Part shown: positions 348-58,278 of the stretch, in pieces
How the letters are laid out: each line of letters starts with the position of its first letter
Numbering within the stretch: position 1 is the stretch's first letter
Source of the DNA: a virus
Length of the DNA stretch: 59,477 nucleotides
IMG/VR virus record: IMGVR_UViG_3300022851_000003
Strand: one strand, 5' to 3'
Made by a program: the position numbers and the translations under genes
Notes under the pieces: generated by a model
What the model saw: only the letters and a program-made list of their open reading frames with translations
Databases searched by the model: none
Told to the model about the DNA's origin: nothing

Positions 348-1904
348 ATGGCAACTCAAACGCTCGAATTCGACGCACCATCCGGCCTGACGCTCAGTTG
401 CAAGCTGTTTGCGATTGGCTCGGATACTGTCGTTGCCACAGCATCGGCAACTGAAAAGACCAACGATCTGAATCGGTACAGTGTGGCTTATACCGACTTG
501 GCCGCTGGTGCTTATCGGCTCAATGCGTTTGTTGGTGCGGTCGGTGGGTTTGCGAATGAGTTGTTTGATACCCTGGCCGCGACGGGTACTTATTATCCGC
601 GATCTGAGACTGCACCGCTCGACGCAGCCGGAACACGCACAGCGATCGGTCTGGCGGCAGCAAACCTCGATACGCAATTGGCCGACATACCAACCGTCTC
701 GGAGTTTGATGCAAGGACATTGGCATCGGCTGATTACTTTGTGGTCGGTGACTACACCGCACCCGACAACGCAAGTATTACTGCGATCCTTGCCTCCACT
801 GACGAACTACAAACGAATCAAGGCAACTGGTTGACTGCTACGGGTTTCAGTACGCACTCAGCCGCCGATGTTGTCACCGCACTCGGCACCGGCTCGACGC
901 TGACCGATTGTGCAACTGCTGACGTTTCGGGACTCGCTACCGCCGCATCAATTGCAGGACTCAATGACTTTGACCCCGCAGTCGATATAGTCGCCCGTGT
1001 CACGTTGACCGATACCACGACCGCCAATACGGACATGCGAGGCACAGACAGTGCGTTGCTTGCAGCAAACTACACTGCACCGGACAACGATAGCATCACA
1101 GAAATCCTACTCGACACCGGCACCACGATTCCAGGCACGATCACTACCGCACAGGGCACGCTGACGAAACTCGAAACGGCACTCGAAGCTGACGGATCAA
1201 GTGGCTGGCAGTACACGACGCTGGCTCTGGAAAACGGTCCTGCCGATGGCGGCGGCGGTGGTGATGCGACACTCGCGAAGCAAGAGGAAATCCTAACCGC
1301 AGTAGGCAATGTGGCGAATGTGTCTCTTACCGGACCCAATGTCGTCAACGTCAACGTCACCAACATTGCGGACGATGCGGCTATCGAGAATGCCACGGTT
1401 CGCGTCTTCAAGGCCGGTTCGTCTGAATCGAAAACGACCGACAGCGAAGGAGACATCGAACCATTTGCACTCGCTTCTGCGACTTGGACACTGGCAATCG
1501 ACGCCGAGAACTTCGGGAGCTACGTTGATACCGCGTTCGTGGTGGGCGGTGACATCTCCGAGGAAGTGCAACTCACCGTCAGTTCAATCTCTCCACCGTC
1601 CGCTGCCGATAAGTCCAACGTCGGACTTCGTGTCATCACGCAGTTTGGCGTGCCTGTGAAGTTCCAGAACGTTCGCGTGGAAATCTTCGAGAACGAATTC
1701 GGCGCGTCGAGCTACGTCGTCAATGCGGACGTTCCTTTGGCGACCGATGCAAGCGGGAACGTGCAGTTTGAGGTACTCAAGTCAACCGAGTTCACCGACG
1801 GAGCGGGCGTGTACCAAGTCACCGTCGGCACCGGACGAGACGCCAAGACGTTTAAGTTCGCGGCACCCTCGACGCCAACCTATCAACTCACGCAGAAGAT
1901 CTAG
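348..1904 (+). CDS. putative virion structural protein (Thr/Ala/Asp-rich, fibre-like)
   Basis: 518-aa ORF in structural arc; composition typical of fibre or decoration proteins. Confidence 0.5.
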   Translation: MATQTLEFDAPSGLTLSCKLFAIGSDTVVATASATEKTNDLNRYSVAYTDLAAGAYRLNAFVGAVGGFANELFDTLAATGTYYPRSETAPLDAAGTRTAIGLAAANLDTQLADIPTVSEFDARTLASADYFVVGDYTAPDNASITAILASTDELQTNQGNWLTATGFSTHSAADVVTALGTGSTLTDCATADVSGLATAASIAGLNDFDPAVDIVARVTLTDTTTANTDMRGTDSALLAANYTAPDNDSITEILLDTGTTIPGTITTAQGTLTKLETALEADGSSGWQYTTLALENGPADGGGGGDATLAKQEEILTAVGNVANVSLTGPNVVNVNVTNIADDAAIENATVRVFKAGSSESKTTDSEGDIEPFALASATWTLAIDAENFGSYVDTAFVVGGDISEEVQLTVSSISPPSAADKSNVGLRVITQFGVPVKFQNVRVEIFENEFGASSYVVNADVPLATDASGNVQFEVLKSTEFTDGAGVYQVTVGTGRDAKTFKFAAPSTPTYQLTQKI

Positions 1905-3592: not shown

Positions 3593-4588
3593 GTGGACAA
3601 CGTACTTACGGGGATGGCAGTCATGGCATGTAATTTTTGCGGCAGTTTTGGGATCAACACGAAGTTCGGTTTCGCTCCCAGCGGCGCTAACGTGGACGCG
3701 ACGCTCGTGGCGGCCACCACTCGTGAAGAAATCCTCGTCGAGAACCTGAACTACAGCGATAGTGTGGTCGGTGGACGCGGCATCACCGGATGGATGGACG
3801 CTTCCTCGCTGAAACTACGCAACGGCCAAAGGCTTGTCTCCGGTGGGTTGATTATGGAAATCGGCCCGAACCAGATCGCACCCTGGCTCAGCGCCCTCGT
3901 TGGCAACAGCGCGGCGGCGGTTGCGAACGTGTCAACGACCAAGGAGAAGTGGGACGCGATTCCGTTCGACCTCTCGGTTGAACGCGACAACGTCGATCAC
4001 GGCTACCGCTACTGCGTTGTCAACCGCGCCGTCATTCGAGGGCGATCAAACCCAAGAGACCAACAAGGCCAAATCGTCCAGATGGCATTGAGTTTCCTGG
4101 GCGTCGAAGAGGAAGACATTACGTTCCCCGGCGCGTTGGCATTGCCGAGCGACGCGCAGTACCCATGGCTCCTCGGTGACGCGAGCCTAGATTACGGTGG
4201 TGAAACCTGCTCGCTGATCTCGTTCGACATCACAATCGAAAACATGCTCAAGCCTCTGTTCCGCAACCGACTGACCCCTGGTTGCTTTCGATCGCTCGGC
4301 CGAAAAATCACGATGGACTTTGCCGTTCCCTACGGGGCCGATTCGTACGCGGGATACATCGACGACAACTCGGCGGACGCGGCAGCCGCACTCACGTTCG
4401 CGTCGACCAACCTGCCCGCTGCCGTCTCGGATTACTCAACGATCTTCACGTTCCCCCAGACGCGTCGGATTGCCCACAACTACACGACCGCGAGCAAGGA
4501 CGAAATTCCGTTGCAAATGAAACTCCAGGCTTACATCAAGGGGTCTTCGCCAGCAATGACGATTGCGAACGTGATCTCGGCCGCGTAA
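3593..4588 (+). CDS. hypothetical virion protein
   Basis: 331-aa ORF in structural arc. Confidence 0.5.
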   Translation: MDNVLTGMAVMACNFCGSFGINTKFGFAPSGANVDATLVAATTREEILVENLNYSDSVVGGRGITGWMDASSLKLRNGQRLVSGGLIMEIGPNQIAPWLSALVGNSAAAVANVSTTKEKWDAIPFDLSVERDNVDHGYRYCVVNRAVIRGRSNPRDQQGQIVQMALSFLGVEEEDITFPGALALPSDAQYPWLLGDASLDYGGETCSLISFDITIENMLKPLFRNRLTPGCFRSLGRKITMDFAVPYGADSYAGYIDDNSADAAAALTFASTNLPAAVSDYSTIFTFPQTRRIAHNYTTASKDEIPLQMKLQAYIKGSSPAMTIANVISAA

Positions 4589-4591
4589 TCC

Positions 4592-6046
4592 ATGGCATTC
4601 CAGCGGCGAAACGATGCCCCCGCCGATCAACGGCGGGAGGACGCAACCAAGTTCATGCAGGAGCTTACGGGCATTCCTGCGCGATCCATCGGTTCGCAGA
4701 TTTCCCCCATGCCTGCGGTTCCGCAGCCATCGAGCCCGCTTGCCTCGGTCGGACAGCCACCTACCGAGAATTCGCTGGAGGCTATCCCCGCAGCCGCAGC
4801 CGTGTCAACGATCGACGTGTTCGCGGGTATGGAAGATCCCGGCGATCCACCGATCACCGCATTCGATGAGTCGCCTCCTGACACAAACGAAACTGCGATA
4901 GAGCAGGTCGAATTGACGCTGGAGGACTCGGTCGCTACGGAAGCGGAGACCGCACCTGAGCCTTTGCCTGACTCTTCGATCGACACAGAGCCAGCGTCCG
5001 AACCCGCGATTGAGCAATTGCCCGAAACTGAGACGGCTCCCGAAGCGGAGATCCCGCCCGTTCCAGTCGCAGAGATGCAGCCGATGGTTGCGCCTGACGT
5101 GTCACATTCCGATAGGTCGCCCGATTTCGTGACGCCGGACCCTGTCGAGCCACAGCAACTTGATTCGCCGGATGAACCGATCGTGTCAGCGGAACCACCG
5201 ACCGCCGACATTCCATCGACGCCACAGTCCAACCAAGGCGACGACCTGCCGTTCTGGGCTCGCTATTCCGCACCCGTTGACGTGGAGGTTATTCAGGCCG
5301 GCGGCAATCCAATGATGGCCCGGCGATCGGACTTGACGCACGAACAGAAGATGGAAATCGCCGAGCGAAATACATCCGAACGGCAACAACTCCGCGAGGA
5401 ACGCCAGGAGCGATACGATCAGCGACAACCCGAACGAGACAGCCCGCCGTCGAACGCAACGAGCGATAGCACCGAAACGATCCAAGCACCCCTGTTGTTC
5501 TCCGATCCGCCTGCGAGTGATTCAGCACCAACGGAACCGACGCAACAGAGCGAGCCTGACAACGATCCGCCTGAGCAGGCACCGCAATCGTCTCAGACCG
5601 ACGAGGTGGCCGCTGATAGTGATACCGCATCGCCACCGAACATTGCTGCCAATGTGCCGCTCACTGCTGAGAATTTTGAACTGATTCGCCAGATGGTGAT
5701 GGAAGCCACAGGGCGACCACAGTCAGGGCAGCGGACGATCCCGGTCTCGCCCCAACCGTCCACGCTCAACCCGCAGGTCGCCAATGCAAGTCCAGTTGCA
5801 TTCGATCCCGAACCCACGTCGCAGATCGACACATCGCAAGACGCTCAGTACACCGAGCCCTTGGCGATGGCAAATGATTTCATCGACCGACACAATGAAG
5901 TCATCCGAATGATTATCGACGCCTTGTCCCGACTGACCGCTGGCTACACAGTCCATCGAGCGCGACTCTCAACGATCCTCGATCGACTTGACTCCGAATC
6001 GCAATCGAACGAATACGGTGAAGGAGACTCGACATGGATGGGGTAA
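4592..6046 (+). CDS. acidic Pro/Glu/Asp-rich low-complexity protein
   Basis: 484-aa ORF; long runs such as PEPLPDSSIDTEPASEPAIEQLPETETAPEAE. Confidence 0.5.
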   Translation: MAFQRRNDAPADQRREDATKFMQELTGIPARSIGSQISPMPAVPQPSSPLASVGQPPTENSLEAIPAAAAVSTIDVFAGMEDPGDPPITAFDESPPDTNETAIEQVELTLEDSVATEAETAPEPLPDSSIDTEPASEPAIEQLPETETAPEAEIPPVPVAEMQPMVAPDVSHSDRSPDFVTPDPVEPQQLDSPDEPIVSAEPPTADIPSTPQSNQGDDLPFWARYSAPVDVEVIQAGGNPMMARRSDLTHEQKMEIAERNTSERQQLREERQERYDQRQPERDSPPSNATSDSTETIQAPLLFSDPPASDSAPTEPTQQSEPDNDPPEQAPQSSQTDEVAADSDTASPPNIAANVPLTAENFELIRQMVMEATGRPQSGQRTIPVSPQPSTLNPQVANASPVAFDPEPTSQIDTSQDAQYTEPLAMANDFIDRHNEVIRMIIDALSRLTAGYTVHRARLSTILDRLDSESQSNEYGEGDSTWMG

Positions 6047-21042: not shown

Positions 21043-21909
21043 TTACACGAAACACATGCCGAGCGTGCATTGCTGCACCTTTTCTGCCGATTCGTCGTAG
21101 TCAATATCCGCTTCGGCTAGAGGCACTCGACTGTGATGCAAGAAAACACCGCCTTGCTCGTCCGCTTCGCGAACTTCGCTGTCCGTTTCAATGGCTTTCT
21201 GCCATTGCTCGGGGTAGTTGTCACGGATGTCACGCCATTCGGCGTTGCGCTTGTGCGGGCACATCCAGCAAGACGACTGCTTAGGCAACGGCCAACCAAA
21301 CTCTTTAATGATCGTTAAACATGAGTGAGTGTTTAGCATCAAATCGACCAACGGACAAACCGTTGTCCATCGACCTTCGGTCTTGTGATGCAAGCCCTTC
21401 CATCGCTTCTTTTCTTCGATTCCAAAGCCTAGCCAACGCGTTCCGCCCTTGATTCCTTTGGCCCGCAAGTGTCGATCAACGACACGTTTCTTCCATTCGT
21501 TACTGCAATATGTTTTCAACTTTCCGGTCTGTGTGAACACAGGGAGCAACAGATCACCGTTGCCGGAATACATGTCGACCGTGGCTAGATCGTGGCTTGC
21601 CACTTCGACAGGACATCCGAGTTCGGTCATCATCGGTTGAGTGTACTTTTCGAGGTATTCCCATGTCGTCGGATTTTCTCGGCTGGTGTCTGCCATTACG
21701 ACAACATCAGGCTTCGGCAAAACGCCTTTGGCTATCATGATGCACATCGCAACGGTTTGGCGACCTCCACCGTAGTTGAAGACCAGAGAACAATTTGTTG
21801 CTGCGGATTTGCCGATTAAGTTTATTGGTTTGGTCATAGTTTTTTCTCGCGATGGCGGGACAATTCGAGCGTTACCACGACCTACGTGGCCTTCAAAAAT
21901 ACGATCCAA
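21043..21909 (-). CDS. PAPS-reductase-family protein (ATP pyrophosphatase fold)
   Basis: VVMADTSRENPTTWEYL matches the DTGxxFPET core of the PAPS reductase family; degenerate PP-loop FNYGGGRQT; Cys pair CWMCPHKR. Confidence 0.6.
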   Translation of the reverse strand: MDRIFEGHVGRGNARIVPPSREKTMTKPINLIGKSAATNCSLVFNYGGGRQTVAMCIMIAKGVLPKPDVVVMADTSRENPTTWEYLEKYTQPMMTELGCPVEVASHDLATVDMYSGNGDLLLPVFTQTGKLKTYCSNEWKKRVVDRHLRAKGIKGGTRWLGFGIEEKKRWKGLHHKTEGRWTTVCPLVDLMLNTHSCLTIIKEFGWPLPKQSSCWMCPHKRNAEWRDIRDNYPEQWQKAIETDSEVREADEQGGVFLHHSRVPLAEADIDYDESAEKVQQCTLGMCFV

Positions 21910-22388
21910 TGTGATTTGTAATGCTTCCCGTACTTGCTGCCGAAAAGCGGTTTCTCGGGTGTCAGCTTGAGGATGTCACCCACCGACACCTCGTCTTCGT
22001 TCCACTTAAAAACCAACGTTCCTTCTGGCCGCAACACTCGGAAACATTCGCGGAATCCCGACGTTATTTCCTCCCGCCAATTTTCGCCAAGCGTTCCGTA
22101 CTTTTTCGCTATCCAGCCTTTCGCACCGTTCCGGCCGAAGTGCGGCGGATCGAAAACGACCAACGCGAACGTATCATCCGCAAATGGCATGTCCGTAAAG
22201 TCCGCGATCAAATCAGGATCGACGATCAACTCACGACTGCCGCCCTTGCTGGACTTGTCCGGCAACGTGTGGCGCTCGCTTCGCTTGTCCATGAACGTCG
22301 CTCGTTCGTCGTCACGGTCGAACCAAAACATCTTGCTACCACAACATGCGTCGAGTACAGGCGTGGTAACAATTGATTGATCCGGCAT
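21882..22388 (-). CDS. putative DNA amino-methyltransferase
   Basis: N-terminal TPVLDACCGS and VVFDPPH (DPPY-like catalytic motif); overlaps downstream gene by 28 nt. Confidence 0.5.
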   Translation of the reverse strand: MPDQSIVTTPVLDACCGSKMFWFDRDDERATFMDKRSERHTLPDKSSKGGSRELIVDPDLIADFTDMPFADDTFALVVFDPPHFGRNGAKGWIAKKYGTLGENWREEITSGFRECFRVLRPEGTLVFKWNEDEVSVGDILKLTPEKPLFGSKYGKHYKSHWIVFLKAT

Positions 22389-47995: not shown

Positions 47996-48586
47996 GTGCC
48001 CCGCCCTGCTGACGAACCTGCTTTCACGCCCGAGCATCCGCCGGGCGACGAAAAGTTCTGCACGCTATGCGGGGAAGAAAAACCCATCGACGAATTCCAC
48101 GTCGATGAGTCGGCTCATGACGGACGCAAGTCCAATTGCAAGGCGTGCCGATCACTTCAGCACGCCGAAGATGTGGAGTCTAAGGTCGACCCCCGCCTCG
48201 CCAAGATTGAAGAGGCAGGACTCGAAGCGCTCGACGCCTTCGCGGGTGGCGGATCATTCAACCCGCACACCCAAGAGCTGATCGACGGGTTTATGAGATT
48301 CCTGGGCGGTCACTACGGCCTGGTGAAACTGACGATGGCCCACTACCACGCGGCCAAACCAGGCAGTGCCGAGCGAGGGAAGACACTCGATAAAATCTAC
48401 CGGCTGATCGCCGCTGAGGACAAGCAGGATGGCTCGCTCGACAAACTTGACCGACGCCAACTCGAAGCCCTCGTCGTCAGCATCGGCACCAAAGCCGGGA
48501 TGCTGCCCAAGCCGAACGACACGCTGTCTCTCGATCACCCCGAAACCGTCAACGCGATCGCCCGTTCCAAAGGCGACGCACTATGA
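47996..48586 (+). CDS. zinc-ribbon protein (possible terminase small subunit)
   Basis: CTLCGEEK...CKAC; directly upstream of and overlapping the large terminase start. Confidence 0.35.
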   Translation: MPRPADEPAFTPEHPPGDEKFCTLCGEEKPIDEFHVDESAHDGRKSNCKACRSLQHAEDVESKVDPRLAKIEEAGLEALDAFAGGGSFNPHTQELIDGFMRFLGGHYGLVKLTMAHYHAAKPGSAERGKTLDKIYRLIAAEDKQDGSLDKLDRRQLEALVVSIGTKAGMLPKPNDTLSLDHPETVNAIARSKGDAL

Positions 48587-51441
48587 TTGACGACATCGAA
48601 TTCAGTGACATCGATCTTTCGACACACCTCGACACCGCCAACGAGATGCAGTCGGGCAGCGAAGCCAACGACTACGTGATCGACGAGTATCACCTGCACA
48701 AGATGCACTCCGCAGCGTCGGAGATCCAGCGCCGGGACATGGAGGCGATGCGGATCTATCGCCCCTCCAAAATCCAAGAGCAGTACCACGCATCCACTGC
48801 CAAGGAGACCGTGTTCGTTGCCGGGAACCAAATCGGCAAATCCATTGCCGGATACTCGGAAGACGGACGAGCTGCCGGTGGATGCGACCCGTACGGCAAG
48901 TACCCCGAGAAAGATGGCATCCTGGCCATCGTGGTCTACAAGGAATCGCAGATCAGGCTGAACACCTATCGGTATCTCCTCAAGCCCGGTGCGTTCGACA
49001 TCATCCAAGACGAAGAGACCGGCATCTGGAAACCCTATTATCCCTGGGTTCCCTCCGATGTTGCTCGCGCCGATCAACGGCGGCCCGCCCCACCGATCCT
49101 TCCACCGCGAATGATTAAGAGAATCCACTGGAAGTCCAAGATGGGCAACGTCCTGTCTCGGATCGACATGGAGAACGGTTGGGAGATTCACGTCTTCTCG
49201 TCGACCGCGAAACCAGATGCCGGGTTCCAAGCCGACCTCGTTCATATCGATGAAGACATCGCCAACGAAGAATGGTACGTCGAGATGATCGCCCGTCTCT
49301 CGATCCGCAAGGGACTCCTGCGATGGACCGCCCTACCGCTGTTCGATAACGACGCGCTGCCTCGTATCGTCGAACGGGCCGACGACGAAGCGGAGAAGCA
49401 CGCACGCGGCGGACCTGTGCCTACCACGACGGTCGTTCGCGGAACCATTTTCGATAACCCGTACCTGACCGACGATACCCGCGAAGAAAACATCAAGCGA
49501 TGGAAGGACGCGGGCGACGATGTCTACCGGCAACGTGCCCTCGGAGAACTCATCACCGACACGGTTCGGATGTACCCGACGTTCACGCCGGAAATCCATG
49601 CCGTCCAACGTTACGGCGAATCGCATCCTGAGTTGTTCGGCGAGTACCTTCGCACCCGTCGAATCCCCGACGATTGGTGTCTGAGATTGTTTGTTGACCC
49701 TGGGTTCTCCACCTGTGCCGCGTTGCTGTTCGCGACCCTGCGACCCGAGGGCGGCGACGACTCCGAACCAATGATTCACGTTGCTGTGCGTGAAATCTAT
49801 CGCCAGCAATGTGACGCCTCGATCTTTGCCCAACTCGCCTCGCAAACCGTTGGCGATCGATGGTTGCAAGCGATGGTCATCGACGCCCACGGTGGTCGAC
49901 TCACCGGCATCGGCGATGGTCGGCGTCCACAAGAGATCTACGAAAGCGAACTGGCCGAACGAAACGTCGTGTGCGTGGAGACCGGCTCTCGCTTCCGTGC
50001 TGGCTGCGACGACATCGTCTACCGGGAAACCGCACTGCGACAACGGTTGATCGTCTCGCCAGTCACCGGGCTACCGGAGTTTATGTACGACGAGGAGATG
50101 TGCCCGAACCTTGAAAAAGAAATGGTGCGGTTCCGAAAGCTGAGAACCCGTGGCGTCATCACCGATAAAGGCAACCGCAAAGCATTTACGCACGCTGTCG
50201 AGTGTTTCTGTGACCAAACCGAAGTCCTTACTGAAAGTGGCTGGAAGCGTTTTGCAGACGCCAGTATCAGCGACCGTTTAGCGACCGTGAACTTGGATAC
50301 CGATACGCTTGAGTTTCAGCATCCATCTCGAATTGTTGAAAGACCTCACAACGGACCGATGGTTCATGTTCACGCACAGAAGCTCAATGCGATGGTCACT
50401 CCTAATCATCGGATGGTTTACTACTCCGACACCGCAAGGCGAAAAAAGACAGGTCCATCTATCTGTTTCGCGGGCGACCTGTCTCCAAGCTATGCGTTAA
50501 AGCTGGCGGCAAAAAACTGGAACGCAGTTTCACCAAAGACATTCGTGCTGCCTGCGGTAGAACTGGATTCGCGACCAGGTAAGCCTGCCGAATTAAACAG
50601 ACTCGACTTCGCCCGGTTCATGGGATGGTACATCGCCGAAGGCTCTGCGGACAAAACAGTGCGTTGCCCTGGAAAGGGCTATCGCGTGTGCATTGCACAG
50701 AGAAAAGAACACGGCATCAACGCGATTCGCGAAATGCTTTCAAAGCTACCGTTTCATTTCGTTGTATCGGGCGACTGCTTCGTGATCTCCAACAAGCAAC
50801 TGTGGTCGTACCTTCGCCAGTTCGGAGACTGCTACACCAAGTTCGTTCCAGACTGGGTGCGACACGGAAGCAGAGAAGTCATCGAGTCGTTTATGGAAGG
50901 CGCTATGGCTGGCGATGGGTGGGTACAAAAGAACGCTCGACGATACGGAACCTCCAGCCCCCGCCTCGCCGACGACATCCAAGAACTATTCCTCAAACTC
51001 GGTTGTTCTGCATCTGTCACTGTTCGGTCGGCAGAGACGGCCGTGTCAAGGATGGTGAGAGGAAAGCCCTGCAAATCTACCTGTGATTTCTTCACGGTAA
51101 TCGAGAGGCTTGTTCCGAGCGTCCGCCTTAGTGACGCACACGACAAGCCGAATTTCAGCACAACGAACTACACCGGAAAGGTGTTCTGCGCAACCGTCCC
51201 CAATGGGACTCTTGTTGTAAGACGCAACGGCCAACCGCTCGTCGCTGGCAATTGCTATGAGTACGCAGCCGCCGACGAACTCAAGTACCACGCACCTCCC
51301 GCCCGTCGAACCCGCGAAACCCCCGGCGAACGTCGTGTTCGGATGTGGCGGGAACGCCAAGCGAAGCGACGAAAACAAATGGGTGGCGCTCTCGGCGTCA
51401 TCCATGGCGGCATCGACCTGTCTGCTCCCATGCCCACTTAA
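48583..51441 (+). CDS. terL: terminase large subunit interrupted by an intein
   Basis: P-loop-like VFVAGNQIGKS, Walker B-like ADLVHIDE, nuclease-like RLFVDPGFS and AMVIDAHGG; 350-aa intein in the C-terminal region. Confidence 0.65.
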   Translation: MIDDIEFSDIDLSTHLDTANEMQSGSEANDYVIDEYHLHKMHSAASEIQRRDMEAMRIYRPSKIQEQYHASTAKETVFVAGNQIGKSIAGYSEDGRAAGGCDPYGKYPEKDGILAIVVYKESQIRLNTYRYLLKPGAFDIIQDEETGIWKPYYPWVPSDVARADQRRPAPPILPPRMIKRIHWKSKMGNVLSRIDMENGWEIHVFSSTAKPDAGFQADLVHIDEDIANEEWYVEMIARLSIRKGLLRWTALPLFDNDALPRIVERADDEAEKHARGGPVPTTTVVRGTIFDNPYLTDDTREENIKRWKDAGDDVYRQRALGELITDTVRMYPTFTPEIHAVQRYGESHPELFGEYLRTRRIPDDWCLRLFVDPGFSTCAALLFATLRPEGGDDSEPMIHVAVREIYRQQCDASIFAQLASQTVGDRWLQAMVIDAHGGRLTGIGDGRRPQEIYESELAERNVVCVETGSRFRAGCDDIVYRETALRQRLIVSPVTGLPEFMYDEEMCPNLEKEMVRFRKLRTRGVITDKGNRKAFTHAVECFCDQTEVLTESGWKRFADASISDRLATVNLDTDTLEFQHPSRIVERPHNGPMVHVHAQKLNAMVTPNHRMVYYSDTARRKKTGPSICFAGDLSPSYALKLAAKNWNAVSPKTFVLPAVELDSRPGKPAELNRLDFARFMGWYIAEGSADKTVRCPGKGYRVCIAQRKEHGINAIREMLSKLPFHFVVSGDCFVISNKQLWSYLRQFGDCYTKFVPDWVRHGSREVIESFMEGAMAGDGWVQKNARRYGTSSPRLADDIQELFLKLGCSASVTVRSAETAVSRMVRGKPCKSTCDFFTVIERLVPSVRLSDAHDKPNFSTTNYTGKVFCATVPNGTLVVRRNGQPLVAGNCYEYAAADELKYHAPPARRTRETPGERRVRMWRERQAKRRKQMGGALGVIHGGIDLSAPMPT
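50203..51252 (+). mobile_element. intein with LAGLIDADG homing endonuclease
   Basis: Block A CFCDQTEVLTESG, block B TPNH, LAGLIDADG motifs FMGWYIAEGS and FMEGAMAGDG, C-terminal VAGN followed by Cys +1. Confidence 0.7.
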
Positions 51442-55112: not shown

Positions 55113-55469
55113 ATGCCCCACCCACCACTCGGCCTGACTGCTCGCGCAACGATCGACCGTGTAATCGACGGCGATACGGTAGTCTTATCGCATCCGTGGC
55201 CGATGACGCTCCGGCTGAAGGATTGCTGGGCACCCGAGCTGCGTGGCGAGCAATCGGAAGCTGGGGTTGAATCCCGCGATGCTTTGGTTGACATGCTCGA
55301 CCCGCCTTGTGAAGTCGTGGTGCATATCCCGACTGGCGAGGCTCGCTCATTGTCGGATGTGATTTCTTTCGGTCGGCCCGTGGCAAATATCTGGCGGCTG
55401 GGAATCGATGCGACTTTGAGCGACGAGTTGATCAACCTCGGATTTGCGACAGCGGAGAAGGAATCTTGA
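55113..55469 (+). CDS. staphylococcal-nuclease-like (SNase/thermonuclease-fold) protein
   Basis: ORF 55032-55469; ATG at 55113; TIDRVIDGDTVVL matches the SNase signature. Confidence 0.5.
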   Translation: MPHPPLGLTARATIDRVIDGDTVVLSHPWPMTLRLKDCWAPELRGEQSEAGVESRDALVDMLDPPCEVVVHIPTGEARSLSDVISFGRPVANIWRLGIDATLSDELINLGFATAEKES

Positions 55470-55690
55470 TCCAACTCCCTTGGCAAATCATTGCCGCGTC
55501 CATTGCGTTGTTCGGCCTGCATTTAATCATCGGCTACCTCCGCCGGACCAACTGCGACGAGCGGATCGAAGTTGCCAAGCGGCAACAGCACCGCGATTCG
55601 ATAAGCATCTATCGCGAAGCCTATCTGGCGGGATGGGTCCACGGGGACCAGGACTCAACCAAACTCACAGAGGAGATCGACCGTGCGTGA
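55466..55690 (+). CDS. small membrane protein (holin- or spanin-like candidate)
   Basis: 74 aa with N-terminal helix WQIIAASIALFGLHLIIGYL and charged C-terminus. Confidence 0.45.
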   Translation: MIQLPWQIIAASIALFGLHLIIGYLRRTNCDERIEVAKRQQHRDSISIYREAYLAGWVHGDQDSTKLTEEIDRA

Positions 55691-56927
55691 TTTTATCCTG
55701 ATTGTCTTGCTTTTTTTGCCGGTGCCTGTATTTGCGCAACCGCAGACGTCATTGGGTCGCATCTCGCAATCCAACATTGGCCGGCAGACCGACGCATCAA
55801 TCGGGCTAGTCCGGCTGAAGTCGGACCAACCGATCCCGGCGGCAGTGAGAGAGGCGGCGAAGTCAGTCTGCCGCGTGAATATCCGTGGCCGTGACGGCGG
55901 CGGTTACGCAGGATCGGGAACGTACATTGGCGAACGAACGATCGTCACAGCTCGGCATGTTGTCGCCGAAGGCGTTTTGACCACGACCACTGTTGACTTC
56001 GCAGGTCAGGTTTTCTCCGGTCGCGGATTCCTGGCGAACAAGACGGCCGATCAGTATTTGATTCAGATTGCCGAGACGCCCAACGTTCGGCCGATCCCGC
56101 TTGCCAGCCGACAGCCCGAACCGGGTGAAGTCGTCTTCGTCATGGGATTCGGCCACAACAAGTTTGACATTTGGTCGGCTCGTCTCACGTCCTACGGCTC
56201 AGCGGTTAGCCAACAAGACTCAGGGTTTTACACAGGCCGACGAAGCCGATCGGGCGACAGTGGCGGGGCGGTACTCAACGCGGCTGGCGAATACGTAGGC
56301 ACGATTTGGGGCGGAGGCAAGAACGACGCTGTTGCGGTCACGTACACACAGACTCGATCGTTTTTTCAGCGGTCAGGATTGCTCGGTCGATTGTTCGGCA
56401 GACGTGGCACGCCGGTGACCGAGGAGCAAACGATCACCGCAGGATGTTTCGGTGGCCAATGCACGCCACGCCCAAGACAACCATCACCGCAGCCATCGCC
56501 GCAGCCATCAACGAACGATCAAGGCTACGTGCCTGGGCCTGACTACTTTGGACAGCCGCCATCTAATCCGCCGGTGGACGCGCCGGCACCTTCTCTTGAT
56601 GTCGACGGACTGGTCGACGCGATCGCGGATCGAATCGGCACTCCGAAGTGTGAGTGTGATTGTGAATCAAAGCCGGGGGCACCTGGGCCGGTTGGCCCCA
56701 AGGGCGATGCCGGGCCACGCGGGCCGCCCGGTGATTCGGCAAGCATCACGCAAGAGCAACTCGAACAAGTTGCGGTCATGGTTCTTAGGCAGATGCCGAA
56801 GCCATCTCCGCAACGAGTCATGCTCGTCAATGGTGCAACCGGCAAAGTACTCGACGACGAAACATACCAAGATGGCGAACCGATCGTGATCGATTTCCAA
56901 AGGGTCATCAATGCCGCAACCAAATGA
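55683..56927 (+). CDS. secreted trypsin-like serine protease with collagen-like repeat
   Basis: Signal-peptide-like ILIVLLFLPVPVFAQP; His motif TARHV; Ser motif GDSGGAV; GAPGPVGPKGDAGPRGPPGD and QPSPQPSPQPS repeats. Confidence 0.65.
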   Translation: MRDFILIVLLFLPVPVFAQPQTSLGRISQSNIGRQTDASIGLVRLKSDQPIPAAVREAAKSVCRVNIRGRDGGGYAGSGTYIGERTIVTARHVVAEGVLTTTTVDFAGQVFSGRGFLANKTADQYLIQIAETPNVRPIPLASRQPEPGEVVFVMGFGHNKFDIWSARLTSYGSAVSQQDSGFYTGRRSRSGDSGGAVLNAAGEYVGTIWGGGKNDAVAVTYTQTRSFFQRSGLLGRLFGRRGTPVTEEQTITAGCFGGQCTPRPRQPSPQPSPQPSTNDQGYVPGPDYFGQPPSNPPVDAPAPSLDVDGLVDAIADRIGTPKCECDCESKPGAPGPVGPKGDAGPRGPPGDSASITQEQLEQVAVMVLRQMPKPSPQRVMLVNGATGKVLDDETYQDGEPIVIDFQRVINAATK

Positions 56928-56988: not shown

Positions 56989-57294
56989 GTGCCAGCCGAG
57001 CAATTGCCAGAAAGCCCCGTCATTGGCGATGGGGTTGTAACGTTACCTCCAATCGAAAGAGAAATTGCAATGGACATTTCCCCAGGCTTCGGAACCTTGC
57101 TGATGAATGAATCGGCGGGCAACGTGCAAAACACCAACCTCAGCGGCCGAAACATCGCGAACATCGCAATGGGTTCGCTTCAAGCCGGTGTGGCCCGGAC
57201 TCATAACGAAATGGGCACGGAAGAAAGTCGTGCGATCAGTGGTGTGATGGCCACGCCGATTGCCCCGCCTTCGATGCAACCCGCTGGCGCTTAA
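56989..57294 (+). CDS. hypothetical protein
   Basis: 101-aa ORF. Confidence 0.4.
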   Translation: MPAEQLPESPVIGDGVVTLPPIEREIAMDISPGFGTLLMNESAGNVQNTNLSGRNIANIAMGSLQAGVARTHNEMGTEESRAISGVMATPIAPPSMQPAGA

Positions 57295-57564
57295 GTGAGT
57301 GAGTTTGACGACGCCGCACAGGCGATCATCAAAGCAAACCAACAAGCTCGTGAGGGTTTCCATGCGAAATCCTTGCAGCTTGTTTCTTCCATTCTTGCAG
57401 ACACGGAGAAAGAACTTGACGACTTCAACGCCGGACTGGAAGAAGAGATTCGAGACATTTTTGCACGGTCGGGGGAAGATCCAACAGCTAGCGGAACTGA
57501 CGGCAGTGGAGTCGATGCAAGCGACAGCGGAGGAGCAACGCAAGAATCAGGAAGCGGAATCTAG
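57295..57564 (+). CDS. hypothetical helical protein
   Basis: 89-aa ORF. Confidence 0.4.
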   Translation: MSEFDDAAQAIIKANQQAREGFHAKSLQLVSSILADTEKELDDFNAGLEEEIRDIFARSGEDPTASGTDGSGVDASDSGGATQESGSGI

Positions 57565-57883
57565 CAAAGTAAGAAAACAGCTTTGGGATTGGGATGAGTC
57601 CGTGAAAGACGATGACGAAATGAGGCAAACAATCTTGGGCGATACCAACACGACATACCCCGCGCCGATCATCATGCAATCGCCGCCTCAGCAGGAAAAG
57701 CAATCACTGTTGCCCGCCGTAGCGATGGCCGCAGTCGCCGGTCTCGGCGGATACCTACTCGCGAATCACGATGACTCGCCGACACCAACGCCGCCCCCAG
57801 TGGCCCCGGTCAACTACACGGACGAAACAATCTCAGTCGGCCTTGGTCGCATTGAGGACTACCTCAAGAGCGATCCCAGATGA
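57515..57883 (+). CDS. membrane protein (start uncertain)
   Basis: Frame of ORF 57299-57883; internal ATG at 57515; helix LLPAVAMAAVAGLGGYLLA. Confidence 0.35.
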   Translation: MQATAEEQRKNQEAESSKVRKQLWDWDESVKDDDEMRQTILGDTNTTYPAPIIMQSPPQQEKQSLLPAVAMAAVAGLGGYLLANHDDSPTPTPPPVAPVNYTDETISVGLGRIEDYLKSDPR

Positions 57884-58278
57884 CAGTTTCAGAAGTAATC
57901 GAAAAGGCTTTCAATTACGGACTACCGACAGTTTTGTTAATCGGACTTGTATTCGGGATCGTGAAAGCAGTCGCATGGCTGGGGCCGAATTTCCTGACGC
58001 CGATCAAAGATCAGATCGTTATCCACCTTTCTAAGTTGGACTCGGCGATTGACTCAATGATGTTACTGATTCGTGGCCAAACGGACGCACTCGAGAAACA
58101 AAACCACGTTCTGCACCGGGTCGAAACGAGCATCGAGGAAGCAGGCAACGACGCTCACAGCAACACCGAAGTGCTCAACAGGATCGATCGCAACGTGCAA
58201 GACATCAAGCGAAACGCGACACGATTTTTTGAAGAATCACATACTGACTTTGAGCGGCATCACGACGACGAAGATTGA
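57880..58278 (+). CDS. membrane protein with N-terminal TM helix
   Basis: GLPTVLLIGLVFGIVKAVAWLG then coiled-coil-like region. Confidence 0.45.
   Translation: MTVSEVIEKAFNYGLPTVLLIGLVFGIVKAVAWLGPNFLTPIKDQIVIHLSKLDSAIDSMMLLIRGQTDALEKQNHVLHRVETSIEEAGNDAHSNTEVLNRIDRNVQDIKRNATRFFEESHTDFERHHDDED

Follow-up and report, generated by a model that had tools for sequence, protein, structure and literature searches.

The closest described systems to the gene considered here are the HtrA proteases DegS, DegP and DegQ (group S1C), whose basic functional unit is a trimer. The gene lies at positions 55683-56927 of IMG/VR virus record IMGVR_UViG_3300022851_000003, a stretch of 59,477 nucleotides (nt) that is called the window in its full length below, and the open reading frame (ORF) exists as an earlier annotation made from the sequence alone (the original prediction) had described it. 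Its product shares with the HtrA proteases the fold, the His-Asp-Ser order of the catalytic residues, a GDSGG motif and, as predicted here, export to the periplasm. HtrA proteases carry PDZ domains, whereas the phage protease has instead a Cys pair, a Pro-rich linker, collagen-like Gly-X-Y (GXY) repeats and a C-terminal module of its own; a collagen-like stalk would give the same trimeric arrangement. Also unlike the HtrA proteases, it is phage-encoded and belongs to a fixed gene cassette. MarP (Rv3671c) of Mycobacterium tuberculosis, which activates the peptidoglycan hydrolase RipA, resembles the phage protease in being a PDZ-less S1C enzyme that acts outside the cytoplasmic membrane. MarP is however anchored by N-terminal transmembrane (TM) helices and has neither a collagen-like segment nor a C-terminal module, whereas a signal peptide is predicted for the phage protease.

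Three further systems invite comparison. Signal-peptide endolysins such as Lys44 of Oenococcus phage fOg44 are lytic enzymes exported by Sec before lysis begins, in which a linker connects the catalytic domain at the N-terminus to a targeting module at the C-terminus. The likeness is one of concept only; these enzymes are peptidoglycan hydrolases, and the phage protease is an S1 protein without such a domain. The LysA/LysB pair of mycobacteriophages, where a lipid esterase accompanies a wall enzyme, is analogous to the DUF1353 or Lipase_3 genes found upstream of the protease in some relatives, but there is no homology, and neither a lipase nor a DUF1353 gene is present in the window phage. Finally, in SPP1 gp12 and in HylP of streptococcal prophages a short GXY run presumably trimerises an otherwise unrelated protein, as in the phage protease. 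Those two are virion proteins without an export signal, whereas here the GXY run joins a predicted exported enzyme to a C-terminal module.

The literature on phage lysis proteases, on collagen-like and trypsin-like phage proteins and on phages of Planctomycetes yielded no description of this architecture or of the cassette. While the protease fold is ordinary, the combination of a signal peptide, a PDZ-less S1C domain, a Pro-rich linker, a collagen-like stalk and a private module appears to be undescribed, as do the fixed partnership with p101, a 101-residue protein of an uncharacterised family of about 500 clusters, and the phage/Planctomycetota setting. To our knowledge, there is no worked-out account of the way in which tailed phages breach the unusual envelope of Planctomycetota, and we know of few or no cultured phages of this phylum. 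A conserved protease with a predicted export signal and fixed partners is a concrete candidate for breaching or remodelling that envelope; p101 can be used as a marker for the cassette in metagenomes; and for protein design the predicted trimer would offer a new natural way of trimerising an HtrA-like protease without PDZ domains. We tentatively propose, at somewhat less than even chances, that the protein is a periplasmic protease of envelope proteins that acts late in infection, in lysis or envelope degradation.

A Predicted Exported Protease with an S1C-like Domain

The protease gene and its parts are as follows (aa, amino acid positions).

55683-56927, + strand: protease, whole ORF; GTG start, 414 aa; signal peptide, S1C-like protease, Cys pair, Pro-rich linker, GXY run and C-terminal module
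55683-55736, + strand: predicted Sec signal peptide, aa 1-18 MRDFILIVLLFLPVPVFA, cut before Q19; Kyte-Doolittle hydropathy and manual rule check
55830-56402, + strand: S1 (chymotrypsin-fold) protease domain, aa ~50-240; Pfam, PDB profiles, AlphaFold2 (AF2) model and Foldseek
55947-55961, + strand: TARHV motif, aa 89-93
55956-55958, + strand: catalytic His92, within TARHV
56049-56051, + strand: catalytic Asp123, from the family alignment
56253-56273, + strand: GDSGGAV motif, aa 191-197
56259-56261, + strand: catalytic Ser193, within GDSGGAV
56445-56462, + strand: Cys pair CFGGQC (C255, C260), both invariant in the 20-sequence alignment
56478-56510, + strand: Pro-rich linker QPSPQPSPQPS, aa 266-276, inside a disordered region (aa ~241-305)
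56676-56738, + strand: collagen-like GXY run GAPGPVGPKGDAGPRGPPGDS, aa 332-352, seven triplets
56739-56924, + strand: C-terminal module, aa 353-414, RVMLVNG..VLDDETYQDGEPIVIDFQRVINAA; particular to this protease family

The product is a member of peptidase family S1, clan PA, and a predicted serine protease with a complete triad. Residues 63-217 match Pfam Trypsin (1.6e-13, 51.5 bits, cut-off 20.6) and Trypsin_2 (1.9e-12, 48.6 bits, cut-off 27.6), and the catalytic His (TARHV) and Ser (GDSGGAV) motifs recognised in the original prediction are present. An incomplete triad, named beforehand as the outcome that would speak against a protease, was not seen: H92, D123 and S193 are unchanged across an alignment of 20 family members, with the triad in the order His, Asp, Ser and a GDSGG-type motif. 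The gene is recurrent: three IMG/VR contigs and several assemblies made independently contain sequences that are identical to it or 98-99% so.

In a profile search of solved structures, MarP (3k6z) was the best match (4.3e-12), followed by DegQ (6e-12) and DegS (4e-10). The AF2 model of the domain (aa ~50-240) is confident, all-beta and folded as a double beta-barrel, the mean predicted local distance difference test score (pLDDT) falling below 80 in a single 10-residue block between aa 51 and 230. Foldseek retrieved DegP and DegS structures (8f0a, 2rce, 3cs0) with this model at E~1e-12 to 1e-13 and 20-24% identity, and gave a probability of 1.00 to DegP, DegS and MarP. By sequence and modelled fold, the domain is S1C-like (HtrA/DegS/MarP-type). 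Judged by its scores, the protein stands outside the DegP, DegS and MarP families proper, because a Pfam scan found no PDZ domain, its C-terminal half being made up of the linker, the GXY repeats and the family-specific module, and because it remains far below the family cut-offs. Its best NCBIfam match, the MarP model, reaches 39.9 bits (2.6e-10) versus a cut-off of 250, TIGR02037 (DegP) 19.1 bits versus 416, and the DegS models 16-19 bits versus 408-423. Scans of Pfam, PHROGs and NCBIfam returned S1 and Collagen matches only, and no peptidoglycan hydrolase domain.

The protease is probably exported by the Sec pathway. The signal-peptide-like N-terminus noted earlier was confirmed by a manual check of the n-h-c rule (not SignalP) on the alignment and on 26 homologues, which a database search had returned with the overall layout of the protease. 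In the window protein, MRDFILIVLLFLPVPVFA followed by QP comprises one basic residue, a 14-residue hydrophobic core and a V-F-A cleavage site; this is the single hydrophobic segment of the N-terminus, of signal-peptide type, and scores 1.92 at aa 1-19 on the Kyte-Doolittle scale with a 19-residue window. The same layout, with an AxA-type site (small-x-small, then Q, D or E), recurs in 25 of the 26 homologues. In a metagenomic protein of 569 aa (P0195), one reading frame runs from an SNase domain through a hydrophobic segment into the S1 protease and on to GXY repeats and the C-terminal module; the hydrophobic segment, between the SNase domain and the protease, is the same segment as the family signal and speaks for export. 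The fusion links the protease to the nuclease gene that recurs in its neighbourhood (see below).

Behind the catalytic domain, the Pro-rich linker is present as previously noted, and AF2 pLDDT falls below 50 at aa 241-254, 262-266, 270-297 and 300-305. The collagen-like triplets are likewise present, but they number seven and not the six counted before. Of 20,000 shuffled versions of the protease sequence, one contained a run of seven or more G-x-x triplets, and G332, G335, G338 and G341 are invariant over 20 homologues. The Pfam Collagen score of the window protein, 16.2 bits, is under the 27.2 cut-off, while homologues carry precomputed Collagen matches; in some distant relatives (e.g., the contigs designated L014, L015 and L018) a coiled-coil-like stretch is added near the repeats or substituted for them. 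The run is conserved and probably of oligomerisation type, a predicted trimeriser.

The C-terminal module is modelled as two strands and a helix with a pLDDT of about 65-76. Its consensus block, RVxLVDG..VIDDETYxPGEPIVLDxQRxINAA, is strongly conserved in the alignment of 20 sequences, where R378, D391, T394 and D404 are conserved columns. With these C-terminal residues (the last 63) as query, an exhaustive search by phmmer retrieved 46 representatives. All 25 newly found full-length carriers also possess an S1 domain and 4-20 GXY triplets, so that the module is, on sequence grounds, private to this protease family and not a shuffled binding domain; the N-termini of these 25 proteins are signal-like and hydrophobic by eye.

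Since collagen-like trimers are common in phage fibres, the protein could also be imagined as a fibre or decoration protein of the virion, whose protease head would digest a proteinaceous surface layer at adsorption. Weak matches to tail-fibre PHROGs over the GXY run (phrog_10972, 8e-4; phrog_366, 9e-3) and the position of the gene in a block that extends from the portal gene to a fibre-like 339-aa protein and tail genes are consistent with this idea. The matches are limited, however, to the 20-30 residues of the run, and a conserved Sec-type signal is ill-suited to virion assembly in the cytoplasm. Furthermore, the protease and its partner genes lie away from structural genes in the relatives L004, L008 and L020, and the copy in L010 has no structural genes at all. 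We regard a place in the virion as very unlikely.

A Conserved Cassette Headed by the Protease

Comparison of gene neighbourhoods revealed a constant order of protease, p101, p89, TM173 and a protein with an N-terminal TM segment. The four genes that follow the protease in the window are:

56989-57294, + strand: p101, soluble protein of 101 aa; GTG start at 56989
57295-57564, + strand: p89, small acidic protein of ~89 aa, third gene of the cassette
57362-57883, + strand: TM173, membrane protein whose single TM segment (aa 116-134) lies close to the C-terminus; short tail DETISVGLGRIEDYLK conserved; start uncertain
57880-58278, + strand: TM132, N-terminal TM segment followed by a hydrophilic region, helical-looking by eye

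The start of p101 was set at GTG 56989 because the N-terminal extension PVIGDGVVTLPP is conserved. The p101 proteins of the window and L004 are 78-80% identical, versus 30-32% for the proteases of the same pair. The p101 family (P0038-P0157) comprises at least 491 clusters at 90% identity, all unnamed, and no relatives were found in Pfam, PHROG, NCBIfam or the PDB; the protein is modelled as a single long helix (aa 32-73), too plain for a fold search. Its gene directly follows the protease gene in the window and in L004, L008, L009, L010, L011, L014-L016, L018, L019, L020 and L021. Three of these contigs were selected by p101 alone, and all three have a Trypsin_2 gene directly upstream of it. 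The pairing of protease and p101 is strict.

Such strictness suggests a partner or substrate relation and bears on a second explanation, according to which the protease would be an indirect lysin that leaves the wall itself intact and instead activates host autolysins, destroys their inhibitors, or processes a phage partner such as p101 or TM173, in the manner of MarP and RipA. This possibility draws on MarP being the best match among both solved structures and NCBIfam models, and on the lack of a recognisable phage endolysin (see below). The MarP score is nevertheless far under the cut-off of that family (39.9 versus 250 bits), making the likeness one that is generic to S1C, and p101, having no export signal, would encounter a periplasmic enzyme only once the membrane has been breached. 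Taken together, we find an indirect lysin decidedly doubtful.

The third and fourth genes of the cassette overlap, TM173 being read in the +1 frame relative to p89. Homologues of p89 occupy the equivalent place in L004 and L008, and ORFs are found at this place in L011, L012, L014-L016, L018, L019 and L021. The overlap, from tens to about 200 nt long and with TM173 always in +1, recurs in the window, L008, L011, L012, L014-L016, L018 and L021. A programmed frameshift between the two genes was considered but dropped: the frames differ by +1, and in L019 the genes do not overlap; the arrangement suggests conserved overlapping genes rather than a frameshift. At the place of TM132, relatives encode proteins of the same architecture with no detectable homology.

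Judged from gene order, the cassette is a mobile unit shared by temperate tailed phages. It follows the portal gene in the window and the S49 prohead protease gene in L009, is inserted between TerS and TerL in L021, immediately precedes the terminase genes in L012 and L015, and comes after replication or recombination genes in L004, L014, L016 and L020. A place next to the terminase recalls that of the lysis genes of lambda and T7. The original prediction had put the window gene itself where a lysis cassette would be expected, and this did not hold: it lies between portal and tail genes, four genes downstream of the portal, and it is in L012, L015 and L021 that the cassette stands before or between the terminase genes.

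The position downstream of the portal is one at which many tailed phages encode a prohead (capsid maturation) protease, and no other protease was recognised in the window. The prohead proteases known to us belong to S49, S78/S80 or U9/U35 and not to S1. The protein studied here has an S1 fold and a signal peptide of predicted cleavable type, L009 already encodes an S49 prohead protease between its portal and the cassette protease, and the cassette is mobile, being found between TerS and TerL, after recombination genes and, in L010, as a lone copy without structural genes. The role in virion maturation envisaged earlier therefore seems hardly credible to us.

Neighbouring Genes

Two genes precede the protease in the window:

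55113-55469, + strand: SNase-type nuclease, phrog_452 at 1.3e-08; ORF open from TTG 55032
55466-55690, + strand: TM74, 74 aa, a single TM segment at the N-terminus; overlaps at its start with the nuclease stop and at its stop with the protease start

The stop and start codons of nuclease, TM74 and protease overlap, and no promoter- or terminator-like site divides them from the surrounding + strand block; in the promoter and terminator scan, sites were no more frequent than in shuffled sequence, the promoter models not being those of the likely host phylum. The protease thus appears to be translationally coupled in a + strand block that holds terminase, portal and tail-tube genes. The membrane proteins that the original prediction had seen on both sides are partly borne out. 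Upstream, TM74 has one TM segment, but the next two genes downstream encode soluble proteins (101 and 89 aa); the further membrane proteins exist as the third and fourth downstream genes and are not immediate neighbours.

Similar genes accompany the protease in relatives. A small TM protein is encoded directly upstream in the window, L009 and L020, the 62-aa protein at this place in L020 resembling TM74 in layout and size on visual comparison; the gene in the same position codes for a DUF1353 protein in L004, L014 and L016 and for a Lipase_3 protein in L019. One member of the DUF1353 family, TtaP, has been shown by experiment to be a phospholipase A2 (PMC11525133). SNase genes are found near the protease in L004, L009, L011, L012, L019 and L020, and L016 encodes an Endonuclease_NS protein whose N-terminus is hydrophobic and, by eye, resembles a signal. 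In L011, L018 and L021 the cassette is followed by small multi-TM proteins of holin-like appearance (by eye), none of which matches a holin profile. Homologues of the DUF1353 protein, of the signal-bearing 146-aa protein and of the holin-like proteins of these relatives are lacking in the window.

Two minor observations concern these neighbours. The SNase homologue of L012 (1295-1837) has an N-terminal hydrophobic segment that ends in a lipobox-like ...MVASC and, from its sequence, may be an exported lipoprotein, unlike the window copy. In L007 and L018, the proteins of 185-218 aa encoded upstream of the protease were suspected by eye to be NlpC/P60-type hydrolases, but Pfam, NCBIfam, PDB and homologue searches did not support it; the two proteins have no detectable relation to each other, and a PDB sequence search with p205 gave no match.

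Link to Planctomycetota

A search with the p101 alignment retrieved three contigs of metagenome-assembled genomes (MAGs), two labelled Planctomycetota/Planctomycetaceae and one Woeseia, whereas GTDB genomes searched with the protease alignment gave no confirmed match. One of the three, L010, is a 164-kb Planctomycetota MAG contig (QQVO01000019.1) that carries the protease, p101, a p89-like ORF and a TM173-like gene at 3734-6020, directly after a tRNA-Phe gene. This ties one or more members of the cassette family to Planctomycetota. By eye, the reading frames and the triad motifs of this copy are intact, and the flanking genes look like host genes (sulfatase, LuxR-type regulator, dehydrogenases, DUF1501-like protein); G+C is 66% in the four genes and about 61% on either side. 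Translated ORFs of a 15-kb stretch around them showed nothing else that was evidently phage-like. No repeat of the tRNA end was found in L010, nor any match between the window and the L010 tRNA-Phe region that would mark an attachment site.

An intact, lone four-gene copy beside a tRNA gene fits a function that is useful to the cell, and hence a role in envelope remodelling, in which the exported protease would trim surface or periplasmic proteins, for instance a receptor. The outcome could be a block to superinfection, progeny kept off cell debris or an altered surface of the lysogen (lysogenic conversion). Predicted export, a C-terminal module of docking type and a phage that has a resolvase and an integrase and is probably temperate would all suit such a role. 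However, in the window the protease has no promoter- or terminator-like site of its own (as judged with promoter models that are not of the likely host phylum) and is coupled in the terminase-portal-tail block, and adjacency to terminase genes together with lipase, phospholipase A2 and nuclease neighbours better suits a destructive, late function. We consider remodelling unlikely, although it deserves to be kept in mind.

Proposed Role in Lysis or Envelope Degradation

Our tentative proposal of a late-acting periplasmic protease of envelope proteins takes its late, envelope-directed context from the coupling in the terminase-portal-tail block, from the terminase-adjacent places and from the lipase, phospholipase A2, nuclease and TM neighbours. 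After export and cleavage of the signal, the GXY or coiled-coil segment would hold three chains together, much as in the trimeric unit of HtrA, and the C-terminal module would serve for docking, either to a component of the envelope or to TM173 through its periplasmic tail. The protease might then cut envelope proteins of the host late in infection and, jointly with the membrane proteins and the lipase or phospholipase A2 encoded alongside it in relatives, contribute to host lysis and virion release. In a phage without a recognisable peptidoglycan hydrolase, it could be the main wall-directed enzyme.

The earlier statement that the window holds no lysozyme or amidase stands at the level of Pfam and PHROG: among about 77 window ORFs, Pfam found no lysozyme, amidase, transglycosylase or peptidoglycan-peptidase family, and no PHROG of the lysis category was found. 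A canonical endolysin elsewhere, which had been named as an argument against a lysis role, was likewise not found in the window, where most ORFs lack a family match. The absence of lysis PHROGs has limited weight, because the PHROG scan of the 20 ORFs at 11-25871 (structural block and neighbours) was almost empty. In the window the protease has small TM proteins on both sides, none of which matches a holin or spanin profile.

Several points weigh against the proposed role. As most window ORFs match no family, the lack of an endolysin is weak evidence and a cryptic one is possible. No holin, spanin or endolysin family was among the profile matches (the best 25 of 35 families) in the window or in the ±6 kb covered in ten relatives, and no candidate lipoprotein o-spanin or lipobox ORF was found. 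The modelled S1C fold would point to protein substrates and not to peptidoglycan, and p101 and p89 have no export signal. TtaP itself is reported to have given no envelope phenotype in Salmonella (PMC11525133). An intact lone lysis module in a bacterial genome, as in L010, would be unexpected unless it is a recent remnant. Lastly, Planctomycetota are only a candidate host of the window phage, one p101 match lying in the contig binned as Woeseia.

A bolder version, to which we give little credence, would see in the cassette and its frequent phospholipase or lipase companion an undescribed, protease-based lysis system of phages of Planctomycetota and perhaps of other bacteria. The protease would there replace the endolysin or be its main partner, because the envelope of such hosts would owe its strength to protein.

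The Phage Genome

The window is an almost whole genome of a tailed phage, of 59.5 kb: a second assembly of the same phage revealed it to be a circular permutation of a genome of ~59.49 kb. Tailed-phage markers are TerL, a P22-like portal and a Phage_tube_2 tail tube. The phage is probably temperate, because its recombination genes include a resolvase, a tyrosine integrase and RecT. No tRNA genes were found in the window, and INPHARED (50,697 records) held no relative among cultured phages when searched by tblastn with the protease and p101 and by megablast with 19.5 kb.

48583-51441, + strand: TerL, 952 aa, with an intein-like LAGLIDADG insert

In TerL, Pfam LAGLIDADG_3 matches aa 766-815 (7.6e-10), and aa 537-633 match PHROGs of the ribonucleotide reductase and thymidylate synthase families. 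From its sequence, TerL appears to contain an intein that includes a homing endonuclease, and the PHROG matches look like common intein sequence.

Other genes were noted in passing. A PAPS-reductase-like gene, a DNA methyltransferase and a CsrA-like regulator, as well as a serine recombinase and the tyrosine integrase, are among the genes at 21043-22388 (- strand) and in the block at 24-48.5 kb. An ORF somewhere within 24-48.5 kb, upstream of the terminase gene, matches a major-head-protein PHROG (5.8e-09). Finally, the 518-aa protein encoded at 348-1904 (+ strand) of the window and a 1029-aa protein of L004 (14090-17179) share stretches of 44-50 aa that are 84-86% identical and are otherwise dissimilar, a mosaic pattern that would be typical of fibre-like proteins.

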